This document shows, one piece after another, positions 2 through 48,186 of a stretch of DNA of 64,000 nt. Within the stretch, counting starts at the first letter, position 1. Each line of letters begins with the position of its first letter. Made by a program: the position numbers and the translations under genes. The stretch spans positions 1-64,000 of IMG/VR virus record IMGVR_UViG_3300028920_000062; one strand, 5' to 3'. The notes beneath the pieces are model-generated. The model was not told the origin of the DNA, did not search any database, and was given only the letters and a program-made list of their open reading frames with translations. Origin of the DNA: a virus.

Positions 2-106
2 GACGATCTATCTAGAGAGATGGACGCATTTCAAAAGGGGGACGAACCTCAGCAGCCTGGACTCTCTCCTCAGAGCATTATCGACGCTGAGTTCGAAGAT
101 GAGTAA
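2..106 (+). CDS. 3' end of an upstream gene (partial), possibly terminase small subunit
   Basis: Frame 2 reads DDLSREMDAFQKGDEPQQPGLSPQSIIDAEFEDE*, with TAA at 104-106 overlapping the next ATG (TAATG). An acidic 'IIDAEFE' tail is reminiscent of small-terminase C-termini, but this is a weak inference. Confidence 0.5.
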   Translation, partial: DDLSREMDAFQKGDEPQQPGLSPQSIIDAEFEDE

Positions 107-3100
107 TGCGACACCGCGACCGGAAGTTCGTTAATGGAGAGTGGCTTTTTCAAGACAAGGAAGGAAATTGGAAACCAGGCAGGAAGGCAGGGAAGTTTGC
201 TTCCAAGAATGTAGGCCCCTCCCGTTCTCACATTCCCTGGGCTGATCCATCTGGTCCTGGTGAGCTATGGGCCCTCAGAATATCCAAAGCGATTGAGAAG
301 AATCCTGGAGCGGTCAAAAACCGCGCTCTCAGAGAACAGGCATTGGCTTATGCTGCTGTTGGGGGCTCTTTTGAAGCCACTGCTCCATTTGAATATTCAT
401 TTGAAACCGGTAAGAAGCTAAGGACTCGAGCGATTCCTTCTGAGAGGGAGGTTGCTCGGAGTCTTCGTCAGGGTCGGTATGAGCTATCTGGTTGGGCTAA
501 GAGGGTTATCAAGATGTCCTTGGGCCCCGAGGAGGCTCAATTTCTGCGAAGCCCCGAAAAATTTGATATTACCCCCTCATTTCTGGAGAGATGGGATAAG
601 GCTGCTAGAGCAAACAAGATCGTAAGGTCGGCAAAATTTCACAAATTATCGATGGAGACAATTCTGTTTCGAGCAGAAAGGGCAGGCGTTCTCTCTGAAG
701 TCCAAGAGATGCTTGGCACTAAGTCCCGCGAGGCTACCGCCTTAAAAAAGAGTATTCGCGGCGGAAAACCGTTTTTTGAGACTGCTATCAAATTTGCTCG
801 AGCAAAACCGTGGGCTGCCGCAGGTATTGGAATTGGAGTTGGAATTGCTGCTGCTCTTGCGATCAAGCCTCTTTCTTGGTTTTCTGGACGCGATGACGAC
901 TACAATACGATTGAGGGGCTTCCACACGGCGGCTTGGCCGGGCAGATGCGCTCTCAATTTACTGATTTCGGTAGTGGCTATCGTTCTTCAGATGATGGAT
1001 ATACGACATTAGACAAAATCGGAGGAGCGCTCATTTTTGCTAATGCCATAACAGCTCTTCCTAATATGGCCAGTAATCTAAAAATGGCTAGAGGCTATCA
1101 AAAAGGTTATATGACCTTTTACCATGGTACTCCTAACGCCAATGCCACAAAGCTTCTTTCGCAGGGACTAATTCCTGGGAATGAAGCCCAAAGACTTGCA
1201 GAAGAAGCTGAACTACAAGAAATTTTACGTCGCGCGAATCAAGAAAGAGCAAAGCAATTTAAGCTCTGGTTTGCAGCCCAAGAAGAAAGACTCGGTGGGT
1301 TTTCTGGTGAGGCTAAAACTCAATATGCCCAACATATCAAAAAACAAATTTCAAGTTTTAGGAAGAGCTGGCAAGAAGAGAAAGAGTTAATTATTAAAGG
1401 TTTTCGGCACAACAAAAATATGCACAAACCTTTTATTCCCGATGTTGCTCAAAAAGCAGCAATGCAAGATAAGGTAGGTCGCATATTTTTCTCTGCTCAT
1501 CCTTGGATTTCTAAATCTCATGCTGCAATGCAGGCTAATAAGGGACTTGGTCCTCTTGCGGCAAATATGAGGAAAATGGGGGGATTTTTAGGATATTTCC
1601 ATTCTTCTGTATGGAAGGCCCATGGATCTGGAAAGATTTTTGAATTTGCTCTTCCAATGAGTGAAGTAACTGCCCAAGTTAGTTTGGCTCCGCAATCCGA
1701 GGCCCTTTTGACTTCTTTAAAAATTCCTAAAGGAATTGCAAGCCGCTATGCGAAATTCACTTCCCTTTTTGCACAAACAAGCTTTGCGGCAGCAATTCCA
1801 ACTCTAGACCTTTCGAAAACAGGATCAGTAACTCCTGAAAAATTTTCTCGAGTTATTCCTGTAGAAGAAGGAAAGATTCTTTGGAATAAAGCTGAAAAAC
1901 TTGGTGCTTCGACAATTAAAGCCACTCCAAATTATTGGAAAGCAGCAGGAAGATTAGGAATGGCTCTTGTTCCATTGGCTACTATGGCCTTTGGACTTTC
2001 AGTCTTTTCGGGGAAGGATGATAGTTTCAATACTATTGAAGGACTGTCTGATCAAGGTATAGCCTCGAATTTACGACAGGACTTTGGTTCCGGCTGGCTT
2101 GGTCTTTGGGCAAGGGAAGACAGGAAAAGAGGAGGTTATCACAGGAGGAGAGGTCATACCCGCCGTGGCTACTGGTACAAGGGTCGTTGGGTAGAGAAGA
2201 AGTGGATCAAGAGTCATTTCGTCAAGCAGAATGAGAATGCCTTCGGCGCTCTGGCCGATAGAGGTGTTGCTGGCGAAACAAGGAAAGAGAACACTGATTT
2301 TGGTTCTGGGTTCAGATATCTGGACTTTGGAGGCCTGATTTCTGAGCAGACCGCTGATCAGAAGGTCACAGAGAACGAATGGAGGAAGATGCTGCGCACT
2401 GTGCGTATTGCACAGGACCAGGAGATCCTTCTTCAGATTCTGGATCGGGACGAAGCAAGAAGGTCGTTCAATAAGCAGCTGAGATGGCGTGACCAAGCAA
2501 AGTCCTCGAGAATAAAGAGATATTTGACAGAGCGTGAGTCGCTTGGAGCCTTCGGCTCGTTTACACCAGGAGCTAATGTTCTACAGGTTGGTGGCCTGGT
2601 TGACCCGCGAGATGTTGTTGCACAAGGATTCCTTCCTGTTGCTGCCGTAGGCAGTGATTCTCGGGAGCGAGCTATTGGCGAGATTCTGTATAACTGGCTA
2701 GACCCTAAGCGCGTTGAAGAAACTATTCTTCACGAAGGTCTTCACTCAATCTGGTCCAACGATATGGACCCGGTCCATAAGGCTAGATTTATTTCAGAAG
2801 CAGAAGAACAGCTGGGTGGGTGGTTTAAGAGCAGAGGGCCTGATGTAGAAGCTCTTGCCGGAAAGGCTCCTATCTATGCACAAGTGGTCCGAGCTGCCGA
2901 GGATACAAACAAACCTAAGTATGTTGAGTGGGTTGCAAATGAGATGTTTGCTCATCGTGGAGCGGCTCTTGCCTATTCTAATCTGGGTTATACGCTTGGG
3001 GAGAATCCTGCCCTAGATCGTATTGTAGGGGAGTATGTGCAACCAGGCCCTAGGAGGACCGTAGGAGCTCGCTTTGAAAATTTTGATCCCTCGGTCGCAC

Positions 3101-6100
3101 TGCAGGAGTATTTCGGACGCACAGAGTATTCTCGTGCGTTAGGAGAGCAAAAGGGAACCTTACTTCCGAAAGGGACGGGAGTGCAATTTTCGCGGGGCGG
3201 TGGTCTACCTACTGCTCTCATGGGCGTTCCAATTGACCCAGAGATTCTCGAGTTTCGAAGGAGGATGGATCAGCCAGGAGAGCGCTCTCGCATTCGCAGG
3301 CTAATTGAAGAGAGATCTGCCGAGTATCAGAAAACCTTGGGCTCTCTTGATAGTTCTGATTTCCTTCGCGGGGATATTGGGACGATAGAGGCCATCAATC
3401 GCAGACGCTCTGATCTCAAGGCAGTCAATTTAGACAGGTTCCAGATGGAGGTTGAGGACGCTGATACGATTGTCCTCAAGCGCCGTGGAATCATTCCTAG
3501 CATTAAATCTTTCTTCGGTTATGGCGATACCTATGTTCGCTTAGCAGGTATTGACGCACCTGAAGTAGAGGCTCATAAGGGTGATCCTCTTGCCCCATTC
3601 CGTATTTGGCAGGACCAGCCTGCTGGAACTAAGGCTACTTGGGCCCTAAAGAGAATGCTGGCCGAGCAGGATGAAGTTAAGTTAGTTATTTCTCAGGATC
3701 AAAAGACTTATGGTCGCTATCTCGGTGTTCTAGCTAATGAAGAGGGTACAAATATTAATATGGAGCTCCTTAGAGGAGGAGCTGTATCTGCACTACCATT
3801 TGGTCCAAGAAAGACAGATATTCTGCTTAGAGAGCAGGCTAGGGCAGCAGAAGAGACTGCGCGGGTCCACAGAAGGGGAATGTGGAGTTATGCTCGCTAC
3901 CAGGCTACTCATATCGCAGAACGCTATATCGGCAGGAATATTACTCACAATACCCTCACAAGACTAGATAAGCTCTCTGGAAATCTAACCTTGGGGGCAT
4001 ATGGTTCTTTCCTTAATAGCTTTGGGGCCCAACAAAGGGAGCTAACTTTTGAGGAGATTGCTCAAGCTAGAAGAATAGGGAAAGCTCTTAGAAAAACACA
4101 TGGTCCTCCTCCCATGGCTGGAGCCCAGACCTTTTCTGGCAAGGATGATGCCCATCTTCAGATAGAAGGGTTGAGTCACCAAGGTATTGCCTGGCAGTTG
4201 CGTCAAGCAATGACGGACTTTGGTTCTGGTTTCAAGGGCGCTCTTATTTCTCAGATTCCTAAGGCCTTGGGAGGAGTATCTGCTTGGAAGGGTCGTCATA
4301 CCGTGGCGGCTGGCGCTGCTGCTTTGGGGATGATAGGAGGAGTAGGAGCTCTTACTGGCGGATGGAGCTCTGAAAACGCTGAAGGCGACCAAGAGGCGTC
4401 TTGGGGTAAGCGCATAGCCACTGGTGCCGGCCTAATGGTTGGTGGGGTTGGTTTGGCTATTGGAGTACCTGCTGCAGCTGTGGCCAGATCTGCTTATAAA
4501 GCTGTTGCGTCTACATTAGGGAAGGAAAAGGCTCGCCAAGTTGCAAAAAATGCATTTGTCACCCAGCTTAAGGTTGGGGGCCGCTCTATCCTTGAGTTTC
4601 CAAAAACTGCTTTTAGAATTCATACTGACAAAGAAATAGTTGCACAAATGAGGCAAGCCGGAGCTGAAAGAGGACTTACCGGTATTCACTCTACTGCTCT
4701 TGGCCGAGGACTTGCTGTTCCAGCTAAATATATAGGAGAAAAGGCCGAAGGTGCTATTGAGCATACGGCTAGTTGGTTAGGCAAAAATTGGATACCTAAG
4801 CTAAAGGAGGGGGATCCAGCAGCCATTGCTCTAGCCGGCATGTCTGTTTTTGATGCTTATCATGCTGCCCATAGTGCATATGAAGGTGATATTGGCGGTG
4901 TAGCAGGAAGCTTAGCTAAGTTTGCTGGGGCTAAGTATGCCTATATGGGATGGCATCATAGGAAACCTATTGGTGAGTGGATTAAGAAGCAAAAGCTTGC
5001 AGATTATGCGGTCTATGCCACTGCAGGTATGCAGGCACTAGGGACTATGCGCAATGCTGCTCTCGAGGCTGCCCAGTACCATTTGGCCTATACAAGAACC
5101 GGGGTATCGGTTGGTCAGTATTATTCTATTGGAGCAGAGAAGTACGGAGAGACTTTCCTTCGTATGGCTAATCAGGCTAAGGATGATTATGCAAGAGCTC
5201 TCGGGCAACTTGATGACAAAACTATTCAAGCAATAATGGCTGATTCTCGTATTAAGGGATTGACTCAAGAATTTGGGAAGATATCTAGCGAGGCAAAGAA
5301 AACAGCAGAAGCTGCTAATAGGTTAACTAAGGAACAGTTTGTAGAGAACCTCAGAAAAGCACAGGGCCGAGCAGCCGAGGTTGGGCCAGATATTGAGCAA
5401 AAGACCTGGCTTGGCTCTAAGGCCGCTGAGCGTTTTGTTAACCAAGATATAGAACAGGCGTGGGGAGTTTTTGAGCAAACAAGAAAAGCCGCACAAAGGG
5501 CTAGTGAGGCAGCTGGAGTAATTAGTCCTGAAACAGATGCGGTTTTTTCTAGGATTAAGAACCTAGGGAAAGATTTTAATTTTGAAGATCTTTCAGAAGT
5601 AATTCCAAAAAGAGGTTCTGCTGTCAATGCATTTGATGGGATGCGTCACGGAGGACTTGCTGGGGAACTAAGGAAACAAAATACTGATTTTGGTTCAGTT
5701 GTAGATTTAGCTAAGGCTGCTAATCGGGCTCAGGAATTATATTTCCGTGGATTCAAGGAAATCTTTAAAAAGAGTGGACTAGACGTTTCTGCGATGGAAT
5801 TCAGCTCCAGTGTATCGTTACGTGGAGGGGGAACGATGCTCCAGGTGTTTGCTCGCGATCCTGGCGGCAAAACACTTATGCAGGCAGACCGGCTTTTATC
5901 CGAAGAGTCTGTAGAACTTTTTTCTGTTTTTCTTGCGAAGGATTTGCGGGGGAAGGGTATCGGTAGGCATTTTTATGATATTGAGCCCAGGCTTCTGCGG
6001 CAAGCGGGGTATGAGGCAGGAACTGTTGTCACTTCGCCAGCTGTTATCAATCCAGTTACTGCTAGATGGCAAATGAAGCAATACGGCGCTCAAATTGCTG

Positions 6101-7362
6101 CGTCAGAAGGGTATAGCGCAGAAAGATCTGCCGAATTAACCCGTCAGATTCTCGAGAAGAAGATAACTCACGAGACAATGCCTATGGCAGGTTTAGCTCT
6201 TGAAGGGAAACTGCCTGCTGCTCCTAAATTTTCTTCAACCCAGCCAAAGTGGTCTCAACTAACTGATGTTCCACAGCAGGTTCGAGCTACTGACGTAGAT
6301 GTAGAATCTGCCATTGCTAATCTTTCTAAGACTCAGGCTGGTTGGAGACAAATGGATGAATCCAGAAAGTTGTTGTCTAATCCTGTCAGGATCAAAGGGC
6401 TTAGAAAAAACTTTGCCGTAGATAGAGTGCCAGAGGCAGTTCCTACTCGTGGTTCCGCTTCAAATTCATTTGACGGAATGGGTCATACTGGTCTTGCAAG
6501 TCATTCTAGAAAGAAGAATACCGACTTTGGATCTCGATGGAATGCCCTTAAAGGTCTGGTCCGGGCTGGCGAAACATTTGAAAAGATGGTTGCCGGTAGT
6601 GAGTTTAAGGCTGCTCTTAGTGCAGCCAAACAGATAAAGCATATTAAGAAAGGTCCTGGTGGCGGGTTCTATTCAGATATTTTTATCATGGAAGGAACCT
6701 TCAGAGATCAGCAATTCAAGTTTGTTCGGAAGGTCGGCCACTTAGGAGAGCACGAAGCTAAGGCGCAAATGGCCGGCGCGCACGAAATGCTTCCTGATGT
6801 CTATTCTTTCAAGACTACTGCAGGGAAGGCCATAGAGACAGATAGGGTTAGGCTTCAGCAGGGTGTTATGGAGATGGAGTATTTCGAGGGGAAGACCTTA
6901 TCTGAGCTTCAGGCAGCTAAGGCCATTTCTGGTTCAGAGGTCAACAAGATTAGAGGTCAAGCACAGGAGCTTTATCAGAAAACTGTGCCAGGTTGGCAGA
7001 ATCCTGACATTCATCCTGGCAACATTATGATGGTTCCTACAGGTCAGAAAGGAACATATAATCTCGGCCTTATAGACCTAGGACTAGCTACTCCTACTGC
7101 CTCTACAGGAGCGCGGGTTGCAGAAGCCGCTGCTCGTATAAAAACAGTTGAGCTTCCTCTTCACCCCACAAAGGGTCCACAAAAGCAGGAAAGCTTACTG
7201 GAAAGTATGGTGCCTAAGTCTGAAAAGCAGAGAAGGTTATTAGAGAAGGTAGCAAGGCAGAAGGCCCAACAAGCTTTAGCTCAAAAGGCCACACAAAGAG
7301 CGACATCAGAAGCCGCTTTGCGTGGTGGAAAAGGACACAAAGCATTTAAAAGTAAAGGATAG
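106..7362 (+). CDS. Giant polyvalent multi-effector protein (ART-like, zincin metallopeptidase, SNase thermonuclease, GNAT and kinase-like domains separated by a repeated linker)
   Basis: 2418-aa ORF. Motifs: FYHGT..IFFS (1117); HEGLH..NEMFA (2731); DADT/RLAGIDAPE/YGRYLG (3457-3726); RGKGIG (5947); MEY/DIHPGN/IDLG (about 6870-7083). Six (T)DFGS-ending repeats. Confidence 0.8.
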   Translation: MRHRDRKFVNGEWLFQDKEGNWKPGRKAGKFASKNVGPSRSHIPWADPSGPGELWALRISKAIEKNPGAVKNRALREQALAYAAVGGSFEATAPFEYSFETGKKLRTRAIPSEREVARSLRQGRYELSGWAKRVIKMSLGPEEAQFLRSPEKFDITPSFLERWDKAARANKIVRSAKFHKLSMETILFRAERAGVLSEVQEMLGTKSREATALKKSIRGGKPFFETAIKFARAKPWAAAGIGIGVGIAAALAIKPLSWFSGRDDDYNTIEGLPHGGLAGQMRSQFTDFGSGYRSSDDGYTTLDKIGGALIFANAITALPNMASNLKMARGYQKGYMTFYHGTPNANATKLLSQGLIPGNEAQRLAEEAELQEILRRANQERAKQFKLWFAAQEERLGGFSGEAKTQYAQHIKKQISSFRKSWQEEKELIIKGFRHNKNMHKPFIPDVAQKAAMQDKVGRIFFSAHPWISKSHAAMQANKGLGPLAANMRKMGGFLGYFHSSVWKAHGSGKIFEFALPMSEVTAQVSLAPQSEALLTSLKIPKGIASRYAKFTSLFAQTSFAAAIPTLDLSKTGSVTPEKFSRVIPVEEGKILWNKAEKLGASTIKATPNYWKAAGRLGMALVPLATMAFGLSVFSGKDDSFNTIEGLSDQGIASNLRQDFGSGWLGLWAREDRKRGGYHRRRGHTRRGYWYKGRWVEKKWIKSHFVKQNENAFGALADRGVAGETRKENTDFGSGFRYLDFGGLISEQTADQKVTENEWRKMLRTVRIAQDQEILLQILDRDEARRSFNKQLRWRDQAKSSRIKRYLTERESLGAFGSFTPGANVLQVGGLVDPRDVVAQGFLPVAAVGSDSRERAIGEILYNWLDPKRVEETILHEGLHSIWSNDMDPVHKARFISEAEEQLGGWFKSRGPDVEALAGKAPIYAQVVRAAEDTNKPKYVEWVANEMFAHRGAALAYSNLGYTLGENPALDRIVGEYVQPGPRRTVGARFENFDPSVALQEYFGRTEYSRALGEQKGTLLPKGTGVQFSRGGGLPTALMGVPIDPEILEFRRRMDQPGERSRIRRLIEERSAEYQKTLGSLDSSDFLRGDIGTIEAINRRRSDLKAVNLDRFQMEVEDADTIVLKRRGIIPSIKSFFGYGDTYVRLAGIDAPEVEAHKGDPLAPFRIWQDQPAGTKATWALKRMLAEQDEVKLVISQDQKTYGRYLGVLANEEGTNINMELLRGGAVSALPFGPRKTDILLREQARAAEETARVHRRGMWSYARYQATHIAERYIGRNITHNTLTRLDKLSGNLTLGAYGSFLNSFGAQQRELTFEEIAQARRIGKALRKTHGPPPMAGAQTFSGKDDAHLQIEGLSHQGIAWQLRQAMTDFGSGFKGALISQIPKALGGVSAWKGRHTVAAGAAALGMIGGVGALTGGWSSENAEGDQEASWGKRIATGAGLMVGGVGLAIGVPAAAVARSAYKAVASTLGKEKARQVAKNAFVTQLKVGGRSILEFPKTAFRIHTDKEIVAQMRQAGAERGLTGIHSTALGRGLAVPAKYIGEKAEGAIEHTASWLGKNWIPKLKEGDPAAIALAGMSVFDAYHAAHSAYEGDIGGVAGSLAKFAGAKYAYMGWHHRKPIGEWIKKQKLADYAVYATAGMQALGTMRNAALEAAQYHLAYTRTGVSVGQYYSIGAEKYGETFLRMANQAKDDYARALGQLDDKTIQAIMADSRIKGLTQEFGKISSEAKKTAEAANRLTKEQFVENLRKAQGRAAEVGPDIEQKTWLGSKAAERFVNQDIEQAWGVFEQTRKAAQRASEAAGVISPETDAVFSRIKNLGKDFNFEDLSEVIPKRGSAVNAFDGMRHGGLAGELRKQNTDFGSVVDLAKAANRAQELYFRGFKEIFKKSGLDVSAMEFSSSVSLRGGGTMLQVFARDPGGKTLMQADRLLSEESVELFSVFLAKDLRGKGIGRHFYDIEPRLLRQAGYEAGTVVTSPAVINPVTARWQMKQYGAQIAASEGYSAERSAELTRQILEKKITHETMPMAGLALEGKLPAAPKFSSTQPKWSQLTDVPQQVRATDVDVESAIANLSKTQAGWRQMDESRKLLSNPVRIKGLRKNFAVDRVPEAVPTRGSASNSFDGMGHTGLASHSRKKNTDFGSRWNALKGLVRAGETFEKMVAGSEFKAALSAAKQIKHIKKGPGGGFYSDIFIMEGTFRDQQFKFVRKVGHLGEHEAKAQMAGAHEMLPDVYSFKTTAGKAIETDRVRLQQGVMEMEYFEGKTLSELQAAKAISGSEVNKIRGQAQELYQKTVPGWQNPDIHPGNIMMVPTGQKGTYNLGLIDLGLATPTASTGARVAEAAARIKTVELPLHPTKGPQKQESLLESMVPKSEKQRRLLEKVARQKAQQALAQKATQRATSEAALRGGKGHKAFKSKG
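880..6534 (+). repeat. Six dispersed intragenic protein-level repeats (880-978, 2005-2094, 2236-2310, 4132-4230, 5605-5697, 6442-6534)
   Basis: FSGRDDDYNTIEGLPHGGLAGQMRSQFTDFGSG; FSGKDDSFNTIEGLSDQGIASNLRQDFGSG; NAFGALADRGVAGETRKENTDFGSG; FSGKDDAHLQIEGLSHQGIAWQLRQAMTDFGSG; NAFDGMRHGGLAGELRKQNTDFGS; NSFDGMGHTGLASHSRKKNTDFGS. Confidence 0.95.
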
Positions 7363-7379: not shown

Positions 7380-8312
7380 ATGGGAATACTTGGAACATTA
7401 GGAAGGGGAGCCTTTGGTTTAGTCAAAGGAGCAACTACAGGTGGCTTCGCAGCGCGAACTGCTATTGGTGCAGGTATAGGTGGTGTCGCTGGTGCGATTC
7501 AGGGTGACTATGCTAATCCGAATGCTCGGATTGAAAGCATAATTAAAGGGGCAGCTCTTGGAGCAACTGTTGGTGGCGCCCTTGGTTTAAATAAGAGTAT
7601 TGGTCGGATGATGGCTCCTCGAGCACTTCGAAAAAAAGCCGAGTCTGTAATTGGGAAACATGCCTTTGAAAAACAATGGTCTCATGTTCCTGCCTGGGGG
7701 AAAGATACGGCCTGGCGAGCTGAGCGCCAATCTGCTTTTCGTGAGGAATTTGCTAAGAAAGCTTCGGCTGAAGCTTGGAAGTATACTCCTACCTCTATGT
7801 TAGCTAAAAGCATCTTTAAGAACCCTATGGGTGCTGCCGGAGAAGGGTTTTTGGCCCGAAATAAACGCATAGGTCAAGAGCGACTAAGAAGCTATCTGGG
7901 AGATACTCTGGGAGCAGAAACATTTGTTCAAAGTCGTGGTGATATTGCTGCTAGGTATTCTCCTCTTGGTAGAGCTGCGGCTGCTCCTACACAAATGCTG
8001 TCTTCTATAGTTAACCATCCTTATCTAGCACTTGGTGGAGTTGGTATTGCAGCAGCGACATATGCTGGGGTAACGTCTCCTGCTTCTCCTACTCTGAGTG
8101 GCGATGTTGAGCGCGCACAAAAGGGACTTAATGCTACTACTAAAGTAAACTATAATACTCAGGCCATGGCAGCTCATACTCTCAGGGAGTCTGGAGTTGC
8201 CCCTATGGGAGCTATGGGAACAGTTCCACAAATGATGGGACCGATGCAACAAGCGTTTCAAAAGAGTACTTCTGGTGTAGTGCAAGGACTACATAGAGGG
8301 AGGCATGGTTAA
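7380..8312 (+). CDS. Gly/Ala-rich basic protein with glycine-zipper hydrophobic segments (putative internal/ejection virion protein)
   Basis: 310 aa; GAGIGGVAGAI, GAALGATVGGALG, LALGGVGIAAATYAGV; TAATG-coupled to the next gene. Confidence 0.6.
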   Translation: MGILGTLGRGAFGLVKGATTGGFAARTAIGAGIGGVAGAIQGDYANPNARIESIIKGAALGATVGGALGLNKSIGRMMAPRALRKKAESVIGKHAFEKQWSHVPAWGKDTAWRAERQSAFREEFAKKASAEAWKYTPTSMLAKSIFKNPMGAAGEGFLARNKRIGQERLRSYLGDTLGAETFVQSRGDIAARYSPLGRAAAAPTQMLSSIVNHPYLALGGVGIAAATYAGVTSPASPTLSGDVERAQKGLNATTKVNYNTQAMAAHTLRESGVAPMGAMGTVPQMMGPMQQAFQKSTSGVVQGLHRGRHG

Positions 8313-9124
8313 TGGCTAGTGATAGAGGTATCTTTGCTCAGGCAAAAACTGGAGTGCAAAATGCTGGAGGTAAGTTAAGAGATTTTTCAGATCTAGCCAA
8401 GGCTGGTGCTCATAATACTGCTGCGGCTTGGCATGGCATGGGAAGAACTGCAGCGGGTGGAGCATTTCGTTCTGGCGTTGCTGAAACTTTTGGATTTGTT
8501 TATGGCGGTCCTAACAATAGTGATTATAGGGGTTTTCTTGGAATAAAGGACCACGACTTTAAGGGCAATTTCAGAAAGGCTCGAAATGTTCGTAGAGCTG
8601 CAATGAAATGGAAAGCTAGCCCTAACGCCTCTTTTTTACGAAAACAGGCTGTTGGTATGAAATATGCCATGAGGTCTGCTCCTGGTCGAGCTCTAAAGTC
8701 TGCGGTGGGTAGTATGGCAGGTAAGGCGATTTTTCCTGCCTTTACAGCTGTTAGTATGTATTCTGCTTACCAAGAAGGCGGTGTTGGTGCTGCACTGAAA
8801 GCTGGAGCTACAGAGGCTGCGGTCTGGGGTGGTCTGAAGCTGGCTGGAGCTATAATTGGTTCAACAACCACAGCCGCTATTGGTGGTGTTGCCGCACTGG
8901 GGTTTGGCTACCATGCTTTGGGAACAGCAGCTAAATCGTATCGAAAGGGTTTGCAAAATCTTGAGATGGGAGCTCCAGTGAAAGATCCTTATGGAACTAC
9001 TGCGACCCTCAGAGCTCGTTCGTTGCAGGCGTTGAATAGTTCGGCCGTTAACGGTAGAATGGCAATGGGGAATGAAGCGTTATTGATGCACGATAGCGCT
9101 TATAGTCCCGCCTTTGGGAGGTAA
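8312..9124 (+). CDS. Gly/Ala-rich basic protein with hydrophobic helices, function unknown
   Basis: 270 aa; VWGGLKLAGAIIG..AAIGGVAALGFGY; coupled start. Confidence 0.6.
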   Translation: MASDRGIFAQAKTGVQNAGGKLRDFSDLAKAGAHNTAAAWHGMGRTAAGGAFRSGVAETFGFVYGGPNNSDYRGFLGIKDHDFKGNFRKARNVRRAAMKWKASPNASFLRKQAVGMKYAMRSAPGRALKSAVGSMAGKAIFPAFTAVSMYSAYQEGGVGAALKAGATEAAVWGGLKLAGAIIGSTTTAAIGGVAALGFGYHALGTAAKSYRKGLQNLEMGAPVKDPYGTTATLRARSLQALNSSAVNGRMAMGNEALLMHDSAYSPAFGR

Positions 9125-9128
9125 GTAA

Positions 9129-9839
9129 ATGATTGCTGCACCACTTTTTAGAGGAGCTTTTTCTCGTGCTATTAGTAATACCGCTAAATCTGCCTGGGCA
9201 AATAGTGCGGTGAGAGGAGGTGTGTACGGTGCTGGAGCCGGTGGTCTGTGGGGAGCTATCTCTGATGACACATCTGTTATTGGTGGCGCTCTAATAGGGG
9301 CTGGACTCGGTGCTGGTGGAGCTAGATACGGCGGTAGCTTTAAAACCGGAGCACGTTCTTGGTGGAATACTGCGGCTGGACACTATGCTGGTGGATCAAG
9401 TGCTAGAACAGTTGCAGGGGCTCTTGGCAGAAGTTTCAAAAGCGGAGCTAGTCGTGCTGTAGATACAATGCGAAGCGATATTGCTTGGGCAGCAGGAAAA
9501 GTTGGCTCAATGTGGGAAGGGGGGTTTTCGAGAAGCGCCGTTAATGCAACAATGAATAATGCAAGAACTGCTGCCGCTAGTGCTGGTACTCGGGCAGCTG
9601 GCAAAGCCCGCGCCCAGGCAGCTGCATCTTCTGAAACAATTGCAAATACTGTTTGTGATTCAAACCAAGCATGCGCTGGCAGCAAAATAGCCTCTAATGT
9701 AACTAATAGCAATTGGCGAAGGAGCTCTGGAAGGCAACGTCGCCGCATGCAGCGCTCGGCAGCAAGAGCTGCATATAATATTCAAGGTGGAGACGCAGGG
9801 ATGATAAGCAGAGGGTATCTGCAAACCATGGGGCTATAG
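9129..9839 (+). CDS. Glycine-zipper, Arg-rich protein, function unknown
   Basis: 236 aa; GGVYGAGAGGLWGAI..GGALIGAGLGAGG; preceded by GGGAGG. Confidence 0.6.
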   Translation: MIAAPLFRGAFSRAISNTAKSAWANSAVRGGVYGAGAGGLWGAISDDTSVIGGALIGAGLGAGGARYGGSFKTGARSWWNTAAGHYAGGSSARTVAGALGRSFKSGASRAVDTMRSDIAWAAGKVGSMWEGGFSRSAVNATMNNARTAAASAGTRAAGKARAQAAASSETIANTVCDSNQACAGSKIASNVTNSNWRRSSGRQRRRMQRSAARAAYNIQGGDAGMISRGYLQTMGL

Positions 9840-9857
9840 TAGTCTCGAAAGACCATT

Positions 9858-11903
9858 ATGCCATTAGATCTCAATCAGTGTGACAAAGCGTGCATTAAGT
9901 GTATCAAGGGGTACAAAAAGAAGCACAAGCTGGTCGCTGGTCAATCCTTCGATATTTCTTGTGAGGGAATCCCAAGGTTCGGCGAACACATCAATATGCT
10001 TGGTTCCATTCCTGCGGACCAACAAAATACTGCTCTAAGTATTCTTGATCCTGTAACATGGGCTGCAGAAACTCTTGACTGGCATTGTCTGGATCCAGAT
10101 GGATCTGTATGGATGCGAAGAGATCCAGGAGAGTATACTAAGTGGAGAGAGCAGAATCCTGATGCTGACTTACTTGGCAACTCTCGCTACCACCGTCCGT
10201 ACCAGGCAGACATGCTTAGGTGTTCATCTCAGTTTAAAGCATTCCGCATAGGTAGACAGGCCGGAAAAACAGAGGCGATTGTTGTCTCGATGCTTTACCA
10301 CATGTTCGTTAAGCCCGGTATCCCGGAGGACGAAGGCTTCAAGATTGTTGTCATCGCTCCATACCAGGCACAAATTGATCTTATCTTTAGTAGGCTAGCT
10401 CAGCTAATCAGAAGCAACCCTGTTACCCAAAATTCCCTGCGCCGAAATGTAAAGGCTCCTGTATATACACTCGAGCTGTTCAATGGCTCCAGGGTTATGG
10501 GATTCACCGCTGGCACAAAGTCAGGTGGAAATGCAGACTCTGTTCGTGGTCAGCACGCACACATGCTAGTGTTCGATGAGGCTGATTACCTTTCTCCGAA
10601 GGATCTCGAGTCTGCTCTGTCGATCATTACCAACCATCCGAATGCTAGTGTATGGATGAGCTCTACTCCATCTGGTAAGCGAGAGAAGTTCTTCCAGGTA
10701 TGTAGTTCCAAAGAGTGGAAAGAGTTCCACTACACCTCTCGAGTCAACCCAATGTGGGATGACAAGAAGGAAGCGCTATTCAGAAGCACGCTCACTGACC
10801 TTGCGTTCCAGCACGAAATTCTTGCTGAGTTTGGAGAGCAGGAGGAGGGTGTGTTCCAGAACGTCCTGGTGCAGCTGGCTAAAGAAACCTATAGCTACGG
10901 TGATATTCCTCACATGAATACTTGGACCTACACTATTGGTGTAGATTGGAACGACACCAAGAATGGCACCTGTATCGTAGTGCTGGGCTTTGATCCCAAG
11001 AGACAAGTTTTTATTGTGGTAGACCGACATACCGTTTCCAGAGAGGGCTGGACTCAGACGCTTGCTATGCACAAAATTGTCGAGCTCAACAGGATATGGA
11101 GGCCCATTACTATCTATATCGACTCTGGCTTTGGTGGCACGCAGTGGGAGATGCTTAGGAAGTTCGGCTATGACTCACTAGCTGATCCGTCGAAGGGACC
11201 TGCTCACCCTGATTCTAGATTACGGGAGATTGTGAAGAAGTACGAATTTGGTAGCAGTGTTGAGGTGTATGACCTGTTTACAAAACAACCTATCAAGAAG
11301 CCGGCCAAATCGTTCTTGGTTGAGAGTACTGTGCGCAGGTTTGAGGCTCAGGATATCAAATTCTCAGATACTGACGAGGTTCTTGAGGCTCAGCTGCTTG
11401 GTTATATCGTAGACCGTGTTACTGCCACCGGTGTCCCTGTCTATAAGGCCAATGACGAGTCTTGTGGAGATCATGTCCTGGATGCATTGATGTGTGCTGT
11501 AATTGGCGTTACTATGGAGGTCTCTCCGCTGGGTAAGCCAAAGTACAGCAGTAAGATAACCCTGACGCCTTATTTTGGAGAAAAGGTGGATGCTGATATC
11601 TTTAGCGGTGATACAGTGCTTAACCACGAGAATCCTAGACGCAAAGAAGAGAAGGCTCGAGAAAAGGCTAGGCCGAATATGAAGAGAACGGACGGTGTTG
11701 AGAAGACCAGTCTTCTTGGGACCGAGAATAGTCTACCCGCACGCAATATGAATGATAGCCAGGTTAGGCCTTGGGACCATCCTGGATTCCTGAGAGATGA
11801 GCCAGCGCCTAGGGTACGTACGTTGAGTGAGGCGATCGATGAGGCTTACAAGAGGCAAGGTTTGCGCAGACCTACTAGAAAACCTCGCCGTAAGAATATA
11901 TAG
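9858..11903 (+). CDS. terL: Terminase large subunit
   Basis: Q motif RPYQ, Walker A GRQAGKT, Walker B LVFDEAD, coupling motif SSTP, RNase H-like nuclease IGVDWN..IDSG..DHVLDAL. Confidence 0.95.
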   Translation: MPLDLNQCDKACIKCIKGYKKKHKLVAGQSFDISCEGIPRFGEHINMLGSIPADQQNTALSILDPVTWAAETLDWHCLDPDGSVWMRRDPGEYTKWREQNPDADLLGNSRYHRPYQADMLRCSSQFKAFRIGRQAGKTEAIVVSMLYHMFVKPGIPEDEGFKIVVIAPYQAQIDLIFSRLAQLIRSNPVTQNSLRRNVKAPVYTLELFNGSRVMGFTAGTKSGGNADSVRGQHAHMLVFDEADYLSPKDLESALSIITNHPNASVWMSSTPSGKREKFFQVCSSKEWKEFHYTSRVNPMWDDKKEALFRSTLTDLAFQHEILAEFGEQEEGVFQNVLVQLAKETYSYGDIPHMNTWTYTIGVDWNDTKNGTCIVVLGFDPKRQVFIVVDRHTVSREGWTQTLAMHKIVELNRIWRPITIYIDSGFGGTQWEMLRKFGYDSLADPSKGPAHPDSRLREIVKKYEFGSSVEVYDLFTKQPIKKPAKSFLVESTVRRFEAQDIKFSDTDEVLEAQLLGYIVDRVTATGVPVYKANDESCGDHVLDALMCAVIGVTMEVSPLGKPKYSSKITLTPYFGEKVDADIFSGDTVLNHENPRRKEEKAREKARPNMKRTDGVEKTSLLGTENSLPARNMNDSQVRPWDHPGFLRDEPAPRVRTLSEAIDEAYKRQGLRRPTRKPRRKNI

Positions 11904-15097: not shown

Positions 15098-17863
15098 TTG
15101 AAGATTTTCGGCGTAGAAATATTCAAACGAGGACGGTTCTTGGTTAAGGACGCGGTCCCTGATGTTAAGGCTCCAGTTCCGCAGACTAAAAAGCCAGCTC
15201 TGATGCGCCTAGTTAAAGATCCCGTGATGCGGTATCGAACTACGCGCTCAGTTGGTAGAGGTGCCTTCAATCCCGCCGAGTACGACCTAGCTGAAATTGG
15301 CCGCATTGAGGATACAGACAGTTATGTAAGGCAGGCCTTCGACAAGAAGGTCGCCCTCATGTTCAAAGAAGGTTGGGATCTTACCGGTAAGAATCTTAAG
15401 ACTATTCGCTATACCAGGACTCGCTTTGCTCAGATAGCACGAGCATCTGGCATTCCTACCAGGGCCCTCTTTCGCTCTATTGGGTCTAGTCTTATTCGCA
15501 AATCAAATGCATTCATTGTCAAAGTACGCAATATAGATGCATCTGGTGGAGAAGTCAGAAGAGAGCCGGGTAAGGCTACTTCTGTGAAGCCAGTAGCTGG
15601 GTACTTCCCTGTCCCTGCCGAGACTATGTATTATCAGCTGAATGGGTCTCGGATTACCAAGTGGCGTCAGAAGATGCCTAATGGTGAATATAAAGACTAC
15701 ATGCCTCGAGATGTGATCCACATCTACTACGATCGCAAAGACGGTTTTGTTTTTGGCACACCTACCATAGTTCCCGTTATTGATGACATCAGGGCTCTTC
15801 GCAAGATCGAGGAGAACATCGAGATGCTCGTTTATCAGCATCTTTTTCCATTGTTCCAATATAAGGTCGGCACAGATGAGCGCCCAGCGGGTGTCACAGA
15901 GGATGGTCAGCTAGAGGTAGATATCGTCAGGAGAGAAATTCAATTCATGCCATCTGAGGGTGGTATCGTTACTCCGGAACGCCACGAGATCAAAGTGATC
16001 GGTGCTGAAGGCAGAGCCATCAGGGCTGAGGGATATCTCGAGCACTTCAAGAAGAGGGTACTCTCTGGACTATCGGTCTCTACCGTTGACATGGGTGAAG
16101 GCCACACAGCTAACCGTGCTACTGCTGACAATATGTCACGCAACCTAATTGACGCGGTGAAGGATTTCCAGCAGGTGCTGGAGACTTTTATTAACGAGTA
16201 CTTCATTAATGAGCTTCTTTTGGAGTCCACCTTCGGATCAGATGTTCTAGATGAAGAGAACCTCTGCTATATGAAGTTCAAAGAGATTGACGTGGACGCT
16301 CAGATTAAGAAAGAGAATCATTATGCAGACTTGTTTGACAAAGATGTTATAGATCACGACGAGGCCCGCAGAGGAACAGGTCGTGAACCGCTAGAAATTC
16401 CAACTCGTGACGAGATTGAGTCCGAAGAAGATACTGCTATAAAGTATCCGCAGTGGCACCGCATGAGATGGAAGCTGTTCAAGGAACCAGAACTTCTTAT
16501 TCAATCTCTTGACGAACCGTGGTCTGCGGCTGCTCGAGCTACTGCGAAGAATAGTCTTACTGAGCTCAGTCAAAAGGATATAGAAGAAGTAGGGAAAGAG
16601 AAGAATAAACAAGAGATTGAGCTGGAGAAGGAACGGTCTAAGGCTAAGGTGGCTGTTGCAAAACAAAAGCCTTCTGGTGGTAAACCAACAAATACTGGGA
16701 CCAGACCTTCTCGCCCCAAGAAGGTTCAGAATGGCTATTTAAACCAGGCTTATTTAAGGCTTACTCAAGATGTTGTATCTAGAGTTTCTGAAGAACAAAA
16801 GTTAGATCATGACTGGGCTGCTCAGATTATTCGAGCTGAGCTTGATACTACTATTCAGAGATTAATCGCAGAACAAGTTATGTCTTTCCGCAGTGGCTAC
16901 GCTGCGCAGTCAACCATTTCCCCCACATTTGCTAGTCAGGTTACTACGGCCAGAGGAATGTTCTCTGACCGAGCTAATCGTTATGTTACTAGACTAGCTA
17001 ACCATGTAGTCTCTTCATTGAAGCGAAAGGTAAATAACAACATTGAGCCTGCCGATATCACAAAAACTACCAGGGCTGTTCTTGAGTCGTTCGCCTATCG
17101 AACAGACTTTATTGAAGATGTCGAGATTCGAAAGGCCTATAACTTGGGAGCAGCATGGGGGCTAAGAAACCAAGAGATAGACCAGATATATAGTGTTGCC
17201 AGAAAAGGGGCTTGTGCCGTATGCAAATCACATCATGCGCAACCCATAGAGCTCGAGTACGTCGGCATGGACGATGTACCTCCTTATCACGCGTCTTGTA
17301 GCTGTGCCCTGACACAACATAAAGAGATGACCCAACTGCGGGATGCTACAGTGCAGGATGCGGAGGGCTCGTTGCCTCCTCCTAAGGGAGTGAAGATGAG
17401 TGAGGAGCCTGCGGACAAGCCTCTACCTGGCACTAACGGCATAGTAAAATGTCCGAAGTGTGGTAAAACAGCTATTAAGAAGAAAGATACTCCAGACGTC
17501 TATAATTGCAGAGCATGCAAGACTTCATTTCGGGTAGTTACTGACGTAGAGGATGCCGCTTCTCAGGTTGGTCCAAGGACTAAGCGAGCAGGTTTTTTGA
17601 AATGTGTTGCTAGGGCTAAGGCTAGACTGAGATCTCAGCATCCAGATTGGGACGAGGGTAGGATCGAGATCGCAGCAGAGACTGCATGTGATCATCACCT
17701 GCAAGATGAAGAAGAAACCAAAAGTTTGACCGATGGCGAAAAGATGGATCGTTGTGTATCAAAAGTAAAGGCTCGACTCAAGAAGAAGGATCCAGATATG
17801 AGTGAGGACAAGCTTACGTCCTCTGCCTTTGCTATCTGTAATAGTCAATTAAAGGGGAAGTAA
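15098..17863 (+). CDS. Portal protein fused to a MuF (SPP1 gp7/Mu gpF-like) domain and Cys-rich C-terminal modules
   Basis: TTG start after AAGGAG; portal-like core (DVIHI..FGTP..DDIRALRKIEE..FPLFQYKVG); CAVC..PPYHASCSC at 17213-17305; lies between terL and the protease. Confidence 0.85.
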   Translation: MKIFGVEIFKRGRFLVKDAVPDVKAPVPQTKKPALMRLVKDPVMRYRTTRSVGRGAFNPAEYDLAEIGRIEDTDSYVRQAFDKKVALMFKEGWDLTGKNLKTIRYTRTRFAQIARASGIPTRALFRSIGSSLIRKSNAFIVKVRNIDASGGEVRREPGKATSVKPVAGYFPVPAETMYYQLNGSRITKWRQKMPNGEYKDYMPRDVIHIYYDRKDGFVFGTPTIVPVIDDIRALRKIEENIEMLVYQHLFPLFQYKVGTDERPAGVTEDGQLEVDIVRREIQFMPSEGGIVTPERHEIKVIGAEGRAIRAEGYLEHFKKRVLSGLSVSTVDMGEGHTANRATADNMSRNLIDAVKDFQQVLETFINEYFINELLLESTFGSDVLDEENLCYMKFKEIDVDAQIKKENHYADLFDKDVIDHDEARRGTGREPLEIPTRDEIESEEDTAIKYPQWHRMRWKLFKEPELLIQSLDEPWSAAARATAKNSLTELSQKDIEEVGKEKNKQEIELEKERSKAKVAVAKQKPSGGKPTNTGTRPSRPKKVQNGYLNQAYLRLTQDVVSRVSEEQKLDHDWAAQIIRAELDTTIQRLIAEQVMSFRSGYAAQSTISPTFASQVTTARGMFSDRANRYVTRLANHVVSSLKRKVNNNIEPADITKTTRAVLESFAYRTDFIEDVEIRKAYNLGAAWGLRNQEIDQIYSVARKGACAVCKSHHAQPIELEYVGMDDVPPYHASCSCALTQHKEMTQLRDATVQDAEGSLPPPKGVKMSEEPADKPLPGTNGIVKCPKCGKTAIKKKDTPDVYNCRACKTSFRVVTDVEDAASQVGPRTKRAGFLKCVARAKARLRSQHPDWDEGRIEIAAETACDHHLQDEEETKSLTDGEKMDRCVSKVKARLKKKDPDMSEDKLTSSAFAICNSQLKGK

Positions 17864-17864: not shown

Positions 17865-20261
17865 GTGAGTGGCAACAAACTAAAATTCCGAGAAGCTGTC
17901 CGGTTTTCTCTTACCGATCAGGCCTTGGTAAAGGTCCAGGACGATTATGCTGGTGCCTTTAAGCCCCCTGCAGAGGGAGCTCAACATGAGAGCGGTCTAG
18001 GAACTACTGACCAGCAGCAAACATACAATGGTCTGCTAGTACGTATTGCTGCTACTCATGCAGGTATCATTACTCGTAACAATGGATTCTATCTGCCTGA
18101 TAAGATGAAGAAGGGCGCGGACTCGTTTACAAGTAATTACAGTAAACCCGTACTCCTTCACCATCAAGATAGCAACGACCCGGTGGGTCGTATTGTAGAA
18201 GCCCAGTATGTAGATACCTCAGGTATTGTCCAGGACGCTTATAACCTAGCTGAGGGCCTACGTGTCGTTGACAAGATGGGCAAAGAAAAGGGAGTTATTA
18301 CCGATACCTTGTTAAAGGACTTTGTTGAGGGGAAGATGCCGTTTGGTATGCAGATAGATACAGTCTGTAGTCTTCTCCGAGATAGTGTCCTTGAGGACGC
18401 GGGGTACCAGGGTTTGGGTTATATTTCAATTGTAGCCCAGATTTCTCACAGAGATGCGATTGAGAAGCTATTAGACGGTCGTTATTTAACTGGCTCTGTT
18501 GGTGCTACTACTGACAAAGCCGTATGTTCAATTTGTCGACAAGACTGGACGGATGCAGGGAAGTGCGAACATAAGCCAGGTGCTATTTATGACGGAGCCA
18601 AGTGCTTTATTATTGCTGGTGCTCTTGACTATGATGAGTACTCCTTTGTTAACGTTCCAGCTGATAGACATTCCAAGGTTTTAGAGCTACACTATAACGG
18701 CATTCAAGATAGTATTGAAATCGCTGAAGAATATTCGGGCAGAATCTATGAGGTACGTCTGGGATTTCCTCAGTACGATTCTGCTGCTAAGGAGGATGAA
18801 GGAATGGCCGAAGAGAAGAAAGATCCCAAGGAAACTAAGGATCAAGAGGCCACCATCAAGGATGAGGTAATTACCGATTCTGAAACTCCTGAGTCAGCTG
18901 CAGACAAGAGGACTGAGGAGAACAAGGATACCGAGCCTGAAGTTCAAGATACCACAGATACTCAGGAAGAAGAGGAAGTAATTCAGGACGAGGCCCAGGA
19001 AACCGACGTTGAGGACACCGACGTTGAGGACGCCAGTAAGAAGAAGAAGAAGAAGAAAAAGAAGAAGGGTGAATATGAAGAGGGTGACGAGGATATGGAT
19101 GACTCTGTCAAGCCAGATCCTGTTACTACTTTCATGGACACCACAGAACTTACTGATGAACTCAAAGATCAGTTCTACGATGAGGTGTTCTGGCCAGAGG
19201 TCGAAGCTGCATTTGAAGATGGCGAGTTTACTCTAGCACAAGCTGGAATTGCTAAGCTCGAGGAAGCTAAACTTGACTCTGAGAAGAGAAAGAAGCTTGC
19301 TAAGTCTACTTTCTGTGGCCCAGATCGTTCATTCCCTGTTCCAGATTGCGCACATGTGACTGCTGCTCGCAGGCTCATTAATCGCTATAAGGGAGAAGGG
19401 GACAAGAGCAAGATTCTTGCATGTGTATCACGCAAGGCTAAGGCAATGGGATGCAGCGTATCTTCTGAGAAGAAGAAGGACACTGTTGAAAAGCCTGCCG
19501 AAACCGTTCAGGAGGACCAACTCCAGCATGGTCGCGTAATGCATATGGTGATTGCTGCCCTTGAGGAAGCTCAGCATTTCTCACCGGACGCAGTCCTTGA
19601 TGAAAGCGAAGTTAAGATGCTTCAGAGCATTTTGAAGAGACTGGCAACTATGGTTGGCAAAGATGCATTTTCTAATGCAGCTGTTGCCGAACAGCTAGCC
19701 TCAAACCCAGAATGTGAGCAAGCTCTTACTGACGAAGTGGTCAAACTAGAGGATACAGTTGGTGATCTGAGAGACCAACTGGACGCACTCCGAAAGGAGT
19801 ACTCAAGTCTATTCTCAGATATGGAGATACTGCAAGATACTCTTACTGAGGCAACTGCCGCCAACAGAGCTTTTAAGGAAGAAAAGCTGTCTATGCTTAG
19901 AAGTCTCAGAGATGGCAAGGCCGAAGAAGAAGAAAACTTTACTGAGATGTCGGACTCAGACCTGCAAGCTGAGATCGACTCAGTGTTGAAGCAAGTTGAC
20001 ATGACTAAGATTGTTGATAAGCTTGGTGATGGAATGGCTAGGGAGCCACAGGGAACTGTGGATGGTCCCGAAATCATTCAGGACGATGGCGAAACCCAGA
20101 AGAGTTCTGTTTCTAATCTCGCAACTCCCGACGAACTGGTAAGGATTCAGGAGCATGTTCAAAAGCTTCTGTTTACCCCAGGTGGGCGCGAGAAGGCAGG
20201 AGCCTACGTCAGGCGTCTACAGGCGGAAGGAAAACTTCCGCTAGACAGCGAGACTAATTAA
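17865..20261 (+). CDS. Prohead (maturation) protease fused to acidic/coiled-coil scaffold
   Basis: GTG start; KPVLLHH..DPVGRI, GRYLTGSVG, CSIC..CEH Zn insertion, EYSFVNVPAD (HK97/herpes-type prohead protease pattern); acidic low-complexity region and C-terminal coiled coil; upstream of the capsid genes. Confidence 0.85.
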   Translation: MSGNKLKFREAVRFSLTDQALVKVQDDYAGAFKPPAEGAQHESGLGTTDQQQTYNGLLVRIAATHAGIITRNNGFYLPDKMKKGADSFTSNYSKPVLLHHQDSNDPVGRIVEAQYVDTSGIVQDAYNLAEGLRVVDKMGKEKGVITDTLLKDFVEGKMPFGMQIDTVCSLLRDSVLEDAGYQGLGYISIVAQISHRDAIEKLLDGRYLTGSVGATTDKAVCSICRQDWTDAGKCEHKPGAIYDGAKCFIIAGALDYDEYSFVNVPADRHSKVLELHYNGIQDSIEIAEEYSGRIYEVRLGFPQYDSAAKEDEGMAEEKKDPKETKDQEATIKDEVITDSETPESAADKRTEENKDTEPEVQDTTDTQEEEEVIQDEAQETDVEDTDVEDASKKKKKKKKKKGEYEEGDEDMDDSVKPDPVTTFMDTTELTDELKDQFYDEVFWPEVEAAFEDGEFTLAQAGIAKLEEAKLDSEKRKKLAKSTFCGPDRSFPVPDCAHVTAARRLINRYKGEGDKSKILACVSRKAKAMGCSVSSEKKKDTVEKPAETVQEDQLQHGRVMHMVIAALEEAQHFSPDAVLDESEVKMLQSILKRLATMVGKDAFSNAAVAEQLASNPECEQALTDEVVKLEDTVGDLRDQLDALRKEYSSLFSDMEILQDTLTEATAANRAFKEEKLSMLRSLRDGKAEEEENFTEMSDSDLQAEIDSVLKQVDMTKIVDKLGDGMAREPQGTVDGPEIIQDDGETQKSSVSNLATPDELVRIQEHVQKLLFTPGGREKAGAYVRRLQAEGKLPLDSETN
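19002..19067 (+). repeat. 15-bp tandem duplication (accgacgttgaggac x2) followed by an AAG-rich tract encoding K10
   Basis: Seen directly: TDVEDTDVEDAS-KKKKKKKKKK in frame in the scaffold region. Confidence 0.9.
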
Positions 20262-48177: not shown

Positions 48178-48186
48178 TGAGGAACT

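Follow-up and report, generated by a model that had tools for sequence, protein, structure and literature searches.

The polyvalent proteins of phages are thought to be the first weapons that a phage brings into the cell. They join unrelated enzyme domains in one polypeptide, have mosaic architectures and are encoded next to head genes; the main text of Iyer et al. 2017 (PMC5512222) describes kinases without a C-terminal lobe, SNase-type and other nucleases, and zincin, GNAT and ART domains among their parts, regards them as delivered with the DNA and proposes that they are processed. Here we describe a gene that shares several of these features, P0001 (106..7362, + strand) of a jumbo phage from marine sediment, a single uninterrupted frame of 2418 amino acids (aa) in the first 64 kb of a 78,981-bp IMG/VR viral contig (IMGVR_UViG_3300028920_000062; CheckV completeness 41%). 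These 64 kb, the whole stretch of DNA analysed, are referred to as the window, and all of its large genes are on the + strand. P0001 contains at least two unrelated effector domains (an SNase domain, a predicted kinase fold, a GNAT-like module and an HEGLH module), and no MuF-type N-terminal domain is detected in it. Being multi-enzyme and part of the head module, it is a member of an established class, the phage polyvalent proteins, as a reading of the DNA letters made before any search (the sequence-only reading) had proposed. Unlike the polyvalent proteins presented in the main text of PMC5512222, where no conserved inter-domain peptide is mentioned, P0001 has the same ~38-aa peptide, here called the joint, at every module boundary, together with a C-terminal tail common to its relatives. 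This standard connector and common tail are the added feature, for which we found no earlier description. The joint is a conserved, unstructured junction peptide under selection at the protein level, and it is there that the modules of this head-module polyvalent protein are exchanged.

Giant chains of exchangeable effectors are also found in the MARTX toxins of Vibrio and its relatives, in which interchangeable effector domains are shuffled between strains by recombination and cut apart in unstructured stretches. The MARTX toxins are secreted bacterial proteins with simple Leu cut sites and their own inositol-hexakisphosphate-activated cysteine protease domain; P0001 resembles them in its chained effectors, but has a long conserved joint and no cysteine protease domain in Pfam and NCBIfam scans. 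In polymorphic toxins the border of the exchanged variable module is marked by a motif (VENN in CdiA, PT-TG, or DPxGL in Rhs) that is sometimes the cut site, and these pre-toxin junction motifs were reportedly treated by Zhang et al. in 2012. There, one junction precedes a single C-terminal toxin; a protein of the present family has as many as seven, the context is that of a virion, and no immunity genes were seen. The polyproteins of picorna-, poty- and alphaviruses are cut at reiterated conserved junctions by a virus-encoded protease; these are RNA viruses of eukaryotes with junctions of 4–8 residues and a fixed gene order, whereas here order and content are free and processing is proposed.

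Among phages, a parallel to such processing is the trimming of internal and ejection proteins by the prohead proteases of T4 and phiKZ-like phages (PMC5694885). Short conserved peptides, the capsid-targeting sequences (CTS), send enzymes including an ADP-ribosyltransferase into the T4 prohead and are then cut off, and ejection proteins with transmembrane helices are known; the trimmed proteins include the IPs and Alt of T4 and the ejection proteins of phiKZ and SPN3US (PMC5694885). These peptides are N-terminal, one per separate protein, 10–130 aa long, unrelated in sequence, and cut at (L/I)-x-E or (S/A/G)-x-E (PMC5694885). The joint, unlike them, is internal and repeated within one chain, its candidate protease is of the HK97/P2-gpO type, and a gp21-type protease is not found (no Peptidase_S77 match in the contig); its cutting is a proposal. 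T4-like (L/I)-x-E and phiKZ-like (S/A/G)-x-E sites were considered within the joint and rejected, as Glu positions vary between its subtypes, and the conserved T-I-E-G is incompatible with (L/I)-x-E.

The joint occurs six times in P0001, all on the + strand: repeat 1 at 868..993 (aa 255–296, FSGRDD..IEGL..TDFGSGY; 69.3 bits), repeat 2 at 1999..2112 (aa 632–669, with three residues missing ahead of DFGS; 43.6 bits), repeat 3 at 2194..2331 (aa 697–742, with a degenerate N-terminal half; 42.5 bits), repeat 4 at 4123..4239 (aa 1340–1378; 58.6 bits), repeat 5 at 5590..5709 (aa 1829–1868; 34.2 bits) and repeat 6 at 6427..6561 (aa 2108–2152; 39.2 bits). The scores come from an independent hidden Markov model (HMM) built from 26 repeats of other genomes and none from P0001; it recovers exactly six copies (34–69 bits), and the best of 200 protein shuffles scores 7.3 bits. 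DFGS is located at aa 287, 659, 731, 1371, 1861 and 2140 and each time closes an alignable motif of ~38–40 aa, FSGKDD-x-YNTIEGL-x-HGG-h-A-x3-RK-x-[LN]-TDFGSG[WY].

The sequence-only reading had placed six copies of a 25–33-aa repeat between unrelated modules, described two subtypes (copies 1, 2 and 4 versus 3, 5 and 6), held the repeat to be conserved as protein and not as DNA, and knew of no description of it. All of this stands except the length: the information profile gives a conserved unit of ~38 aa. In the alignment, copies 1, 2 and 4 carry FSG[KR]DD..IEGL, and copies 3, 5 and 6, which are degenerate in their N-terminal half, carry N[AS]F. The Ser of DFGS is confirmed to be encoded by AGT in copy 1 and by TCN in the remaining five; the copies share 31–58% pairwise DNA identity and no exact match longer than 14 nt, and only 68 of the 179 columns with identical residues use the same codon. 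Because DNA identity is low, exact matches are short and codons drift, the conservation of the joint is selected on the peptide and not on the DNA, and the copies are not a recent duplication. The idea of joints as DNA-level recombinase targets is likewise rejected, the DNA of the copies not being conserved.

The consensus derived from 363 anchored joint copies is F-S-G-K-D-D-x-Y-N-T-I-E-G-L-x-H-G-G-h-A-x3-R-K-x-[LN]-T-D-F-G-S-G-[WY]-x-G, with the F conserved in 99%, the G in 100%, the S in 98%, the R in 92% and the G at position −11 in 91%; information is at background level beyond positions −31 to +9. The joint has no match in Pfam at E≤1 and none in NCBIfam, its best hit among PDB sequences has an E value of 1.7, and 'TDFGS' appears in the searchable literature in unrelated contexts only. 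A diverged subtype, P-I-[ND]-G-[LI]-H-P-G-S-E-G-x-G-A-Q-x2-R-x-H-S-[DE]-F-G-S-G-W, is present in three related loci (L004, at 9059–13978 of a 174-kb contig, L009 and L013), where it coexists with canonical copies inside the same proteins.

Structure prediction places the joint outside folded domains, as the sequence-only reading would require; repeats lying within domains would have told against it. Modelled alone by AlphaFold2 (AF2) from a 32-row alignment, the joint has a predicted local distance difference test (pLDDT) score of 62 and forms a single helix over G-h-A-x3-R-K. An AF2 model in context (594 aa, aa 1825–2418; 14 alignment rows) has confident GNAT-like and kinase domains (pLDDT ~85–97; >90 at model residues 44–215 for the GNAT-like domain and 80–94 for the kinase), between and ahead of which joints 5 and 6 are at 30–60 (repeat 5 at 36–46, with one short helix), and each domain starts a few residues past DFGS. 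In these models the joint is a linear peptide and not a domain, with one short amphipathic helix and an F-G-S that hardly varies.

A profile of the six P0001 copies, searched against 1.84 billion representative proteins, matches at least 492 protein clusters at E≤1e-3, of which 300 also pass E≤1e-10; among the matches listed all are apparently metagenomic, on contigs of up to ~190–205 kb. Counts of modules and architectures rest on the best 150 representatives, a set biased toward multi-copy proteins, with 2–7 joints and lengths of 511–2454 aa. The joint-delimited segments, mostly 150–400 aa, cluster into 43 families with at least two members plus 140 singletons. Homologues had been expected to differ in the number and kind of modules but always to be split by the joint, and this is what is seen: the 150 proteins have 148 different architectures, and at 11 related viral loci the joint-bearing gene ranges from 457 to 2418 aa with 1–6 joints. 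The commonest module, the kinase, has 40 different left neighbours, and families F1, F8, F13, F19 and F21 are nearly always N-terminal. Pfam recognises only SNase, Pkinase/ABC1/APH/RIO and RNase_T/PolB-type exonucleases, and most modules are without a family. Joints always number one fewer than modules and none closes a protein; one relative has a 150-aa kinase module enclosed by two joints. Mini-modules of 17–58 aa between two joints are present in 26 of the 150 proteins, the basic peptide of P0001 among them, and a hydrophobic helix is found directly upstream of 15% of joints versus 1% in the background.

The ends of homology between family members often fall at the joint. Internal ends of BLAST high-scoring segment pairs lie ≤10 aa from a joint in 50% of cases compared to 15% at random. 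The closest relatives, loci L002 and L003, have flanking genes with 71–84% DNA identity to the window and a giant protein of 1785 aa with three clear joints and a possible degenerate fourth. The first joint of L002 is a chimera, corresponding to window repeat 1 up to HGG and to window repeat 2 from DFGSG onward, and L002 is without the ART-like module; its third joint is likewise a chimera, in which window repeat 4 passes into window repeat 6 at GSGW, and the membrane/coiled-coil and GNAT-like modules are absent. Aligned with blastn, the window gene and that of L002 are homologous only at nt 2080–4229, an interval that opens with the D codon of DFGS in repeat 2 and closes with the G codon of repeat 4's DFGSG; beyond it the DNA homology ends at the ATG and restarts directly past the stop codon.

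A further exchange is visible within one sample. The giant gene is present in three marine-sediment metagenome runs, and in run X1 an assembly bubble joins nt 79–108 to nt 883–918 via 1140 other letters versus the 774 (nt 109–882) of the main allele, at depths of ~10 and ~31, respectively. This alternative N-terminal allele extends from the start codon to the F-S-G codons that open repeat 1. A search of viral sequences for it gave no match, and the sole metagenome match, L024, is the main allele; the 10 kb of upstream sequence at L024 contain no recognisable families. Run X3 has reads over parts of the gene only and no bridging contig, and gives no allele reading; no RNA datasets are listed among the sequencing runs carrying the gene.

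The joint is thus the site where modules are gained, lost and exchanged in frame, and the suggestion that it acts as a hinge for adding or swapping modules is borne out by the mapping of breakpoints onto it. With breakpoints at the DFGSG cores, the exchange of modules in a phage protein is resolved to the single codon. Coincident breakpoints and lack of structure would also suit a joint with no biochemical role, a tolerated linker or a recombination scar that marks harmless in-frame exchange. This we consider barely credible: it is contradicted by at least 15 positions with 70–100% identity over hundreds of clusters while codons drift, and with ≤14 nt of exact DNA identity the copies are poor substrates for homologous recombination, so that their conservation must be selected at the peptide level.

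The modules of P0001 differ in how well they can be named. The N-terminal module (106..867, aa 1–254), which ends in a hydrophobic Gly/Ala-rich helix (aa 235–252), has no match in family searches and 26% identity to the N-terminal part of the L002 protein. Module 2 (994..1998, aa ~297–631), with a hydrophobic helix at its end (aa 616–633), belongs to module family F16, whose 6 members always have repeats on their borders. It has neither Pfam nor PDB sequence matches, and 'ART-like' is a weak assignment drawn from motifs and from a faint Atlas similarity (score 0.82) to a diphtheria-toxin C-domain cluster. Between repeats 2 and 3 is a basic, aromatic-rich mini-module (2113..2193, aa 670–696, net charge +9); the sequence-only reading gave this peptide 47 aa, whereas it has ~27–40 aa depending on where the repeats are cut, with a net charge of +9 to +11.

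The next module (2332..4122) contains HEGLH at aa 876–880 (nt 2731–2745) and a staphylococcal-nuclease domain at aa 1144–1261 (nt 3535–3888; Pfam SNase, E = 1.6e-15); it belongs to family F28 and is 79% identical to its L002 counterpart. The SNase region also touches phrog_8809, a PHROG of 2317 positions. The membrane/coiled-coil module (4240..5589; family F10, 10 members) has Gly/Ala-rich hydrophobic helices at aa 1399–1416 and 1437–1454 and long helical stretches. The GNAT-like alpha/beta module (5710..6426, aa 1869–2107; family F12, 8 members), followed by a disordered linker, has an R-G-K-G-I-G motif and a single VIA structural row (8g8k_A, Z 8.6), the other rows of the two-domain model being kinases; the R-x-x-G-x-G motif, the confident alpha/beta model and this one row make GNAT identity likely. 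The last module (6562..7260, aa ~2153–2385) is a short protein-kinase fold recognised from its predicted structure, with Foldseek matches to PknB, ULK1 and Aurora (E ~3e-5) and VIA matches to ULK4 and Rio kinases (Z ~10), alignments that cover only ~135–180 residues of these kinases. It belongs to family F0 (75 members), homologues in which match Pfam Pkinase/ABC1. The sequence-only names therefore hold for SNase (by Pfam), for the kinase (by fold) and for HEGLH, probably for GNAT, and only weakly for ART. The giant protein has no DNA or tblastn match in the INPHARED phage collection. Among the relatives, P0039 (1718 aa) has a 959-aa N-terminal module with precomputed Pfam matches to an intein splicing domain and a LAGLIDADG endonuclease, and would thus hold an intein within a polyvalent protein module.

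The gene ends in a C-terminal tail (7261..7362 with the stop codon; aa 2386–2412 by the tail HMM, ..GGKGH..). Whatever module comes last, a basic tail of ~29 aa with the consensus ..A-Q-K-Q-I-W-x-A-A-H-N-G-G-R-G-H-R is found by this HMM in 82 of the 150 representatives, always ≤40 aa from the C-terminus, and at 10 of the 11 related loci; examples are window 7261–7359 (aa 2386–2418 of P0001), P0004, P0028, P0057 and loci L002–L014. A second group of family proteins ends in ..H-H-[IV]-G. A possible role of the tail is that of an address directing the chain into the capsid.

The giant gene comes shortly before the genes for terminase, portal, protease/scaffold and capsid in a lineage of uncultured ~200-kb myoviruses, and at all 11 related loci the joint gene lies 2–3 small genes upstream of the large terminase subunit gene (TerL), of genes for a 139-aa and a 910-aa protein and of the portal gene. 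In the window these are TerL (9858..11903; phrog_2, 2e-37; tblastn matches to jumbo myoviruses), the portal protein (15098..17863; phrog_9232, 4e-53), a prohead protease/scaffold fusion (17865..20261) and the major capsid protein (21499..22728; phrog_3922), all on the + strand. All four are homologous to proteins of the jumbo myoviruses Bacillus phage 0305phi8-36 and Acinetobacter phage ME3, including the 0305phi8-36 portal, its major head protein (4e-70) and its ORF123, annotated 'protease/scaffold' (tblastn 1e-14, phmmer 2e-29). The 0305phi8-36 genes at the corresponding position, shortly before TerL, code for virion proteins verified by mass spectrometry, and on this synteny the giant protein is a candidate virion component.

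The protease/scaffold protein is a candidate HK97/P2-gpO-type prohead protease by homology, by its conserved His and Ser and by its position between portal and capsid genes, although Pfam models S78, S77 (Peptidase_S77) and ClpP have no match in the contig. Motifs KP-x-L-x-HH..DP-x-G and DGR..S are kept in full-length homologues, with the Ser region missing in one truncated row, and the C-terminal part is a coiled coil. Two further features of the protein are a Cys-x2-Cys ... Cys-Glu-His cluster inserted within the protease domain, and a long acidic stretch followed by 11 lysines (about aa 391–401) ahead of the coiled coil. A rough comparison of the protease/scaffold alignment with the joint subtypes of the few genomes available gives no clear covariation, and a complex prediction of the protease domain with the joint (score 0.01, mark 0.32) counts for neither binding nor non-binding. 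PDB sequence searches with the protease/scaffold, the 400-aa and 910-aa proteins and the GNAT-like and ART-like modules returned nothing useful.

We tentatively favour, while holding the case to fall slightly short of even, a reading in which the gene is a hypervariable effector chain, composed of an N-terminal module, a series of joint-plus-module units and a short conserved tail, with joints that are cut or docked by a shared factor. The chain would enter the prohead as a single polypeptide, perhaps addressed by its common tail. Every joint would be recognised by the same factor, the most probable candidate being the HK97/P2-gpO-type prohead protease/scaffold whose gene follows that of the portal; this factor would dock on the joint and cut at F-G-S or close by. 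Small peptides, enzymes and membrane-anchored pieces would then be freed within the head and exit with the DNA at infection. The same machinery would package and release whatever module stands between two joints, and since all joints are alike this would explain the free shuffling of modules. Loading followed by cutting fits best because there is one separator fewer than modules and a single tail, because some units are peptide-sized or membrane-bound, and because a nearly invariant F-G-S precedes each module.

The same observations bear on two related proposals. A reiterated packaging tag, one of the roles suggested by the sequence-only reading, is less attractive because joints number one fewer than modules, none is terminal, and the separate conserved tail could be the address. 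The second proposal is that the chain stays uncleaved and the joint is a reiterated docking peptide, similar to capsid-targeting or cargo-loading peptides, that attaches the chain at several points to the scaffold, the capsid interior or the portal and also serves as a flexible hinge, so that the chain could pass out through the phage tail like beads on a string. The long conserved unit, which has an amphipathic helix but lacks an independent fold, is what one expects of a peptide that becomes ordered on binding a partner, the usual protease substrates contain no FGS-like site, and some family members open with a joint in the manner of a leader. We nonetheless regard docking without cleavage as unlikely: a single address is enough for an uncleaved chain, and the joints, one fewer than modules and never terminal, are accompanied by a separate tail; mini-modules of 17–58 aa make little sense as beads, and an unbroken chain could hardly make use of the hydrophobic helices that 15% of joints have directly upstream.

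If the joints are cut, the cutter could also be a zincin module acting in cis or the joint itself, for instance through an N-to-O acyl shift at G-S assisted by conserved His or Asp. Self-processing of this kind would suit the nearly invariant F-G-S, the H, D, E and N conserved within a short stretch, and the ten-fold enrichment of HExxH modules in the family (60 observed versus 5.8 expected), and autoprocessing by metallopeptidases is proposed in the main text of Iyer et al. 2017 (PMC5512222). No protease families other than HExxH-motif modules are found by Pfam or NCBIfam in P0001 or 12 homologues. We think it very improbable, however: the joint has no fold of its own to hold a catalytic geometry, and HExxH is present in only 49 of the 150 proteins. 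The HEGLH zincin named as a possible cutter by the sequence-only reading is indeed present in P0001, but cleavage in cis by a zincin cannot be the general mechanism.

The occurrence of the joint in a single gene allows a further explanation. It is confined to one gene per genome in five records, one of them 91% complete, and a conserved host factor such as a housekeeping protease might cut or bind it only after injection, the chain travelling whole. This would agree with the absence of the motif from the phage's other head proteins, with strongly conserved polar residues that could mimic a host substrate, and with the processing after entry that the main text of PMC5512222 proposes for polyvalent proteins. 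We consider it distinctly improbable, as no host is assigned to the phage, as among the matches listed (the best 120–150, biased toward multi-copy proteins) the motif occurs only in this multi-copy family, and as it is kept across divergent phages (TerL ~25–35% identical), which would need an equally conserved factor.

Several points weigh against loading followed by cutting of the chain by the phage protease, whose cleavage, packaging and binding steps we wholly infer. No other open reading frame in the six frames of the 79-kb contig contains the motif, and neither FGS nor FSG occurs in the capsid protein, the scaffold part or the 400-aa protein between them. The cultured relatives 0305phi8-36 and ME3 have a homologous protease and neither the giant gene nor the joint, so the protease did not need a joint substrate. 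A conserved unit of 38 aa, compared to the 3–8 residues usual for a scissile site, speaks for docking at least as much as for cutting, and position 0, the D of D-F-G-S, tolerates E, H, A or Q. A few family members open with a joint after 2–45 residues, which fits a leader peptide as well as a cleavage site, although some of these may be truncated gene calls. In P0122, P0129, P0128 and P0144 the joint follows only 2–45 residues and a kinase comes directly next; either the genes are split and retain the joint as an N-terminal leader, or the gene calls are truncated.

Three small Gly/Ala-rich genes (7380..9839, + strand; 310, 270 and 236 aa) lie between the giant gene and the terminase gene. Their products have no family matches, are glycine-zipper-like, have homologues at the same position in some related loci, and may be further internal or membrane-active virion proteins. 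A 400-aa protein (20276–21478) between protease/scaffold and capsid genes is homologous to an ME3 protein at the same position and occupies the place of the 0305phi8-36 head decoration protein. The tail region (39533–54210) contains three more giant genes of 1348, 1532 and 2007 aa; the 2007-aa protein has endolysin- and metallopeptidase-like parts and matches phrog_8809, and the other two have no family matches.

The way in which so many enzymes within a single chain come to be packaged, separated and renewed is the question on which a conserved boundary peptide bears. One protease or binding partner and one substrate of ~38 residues can be assayed in vitro without phage culture, and the joint lets hundreds of giant metagenomic proteins be split automatically into about 180 module families and singletons, most without an assigned function. 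It is possible, although on the whole doubtful, that joint and tail form a general cargo-loading and release system of the jumbo-phage capsid, a polyprotein strategy with a standard connector in a DNA phage, in which the tail would bring the chain into the prohead and the protease would dock on each joint and cut at F-G-S. If true, the joint-plus-tail system would offer a natural template for putting proteins of choice into capsids, and through the standard connector evolution would swap anti-host effectors in plug-and-play fashion, be they enzymes, membrane pieces or peptides of 20 aa.

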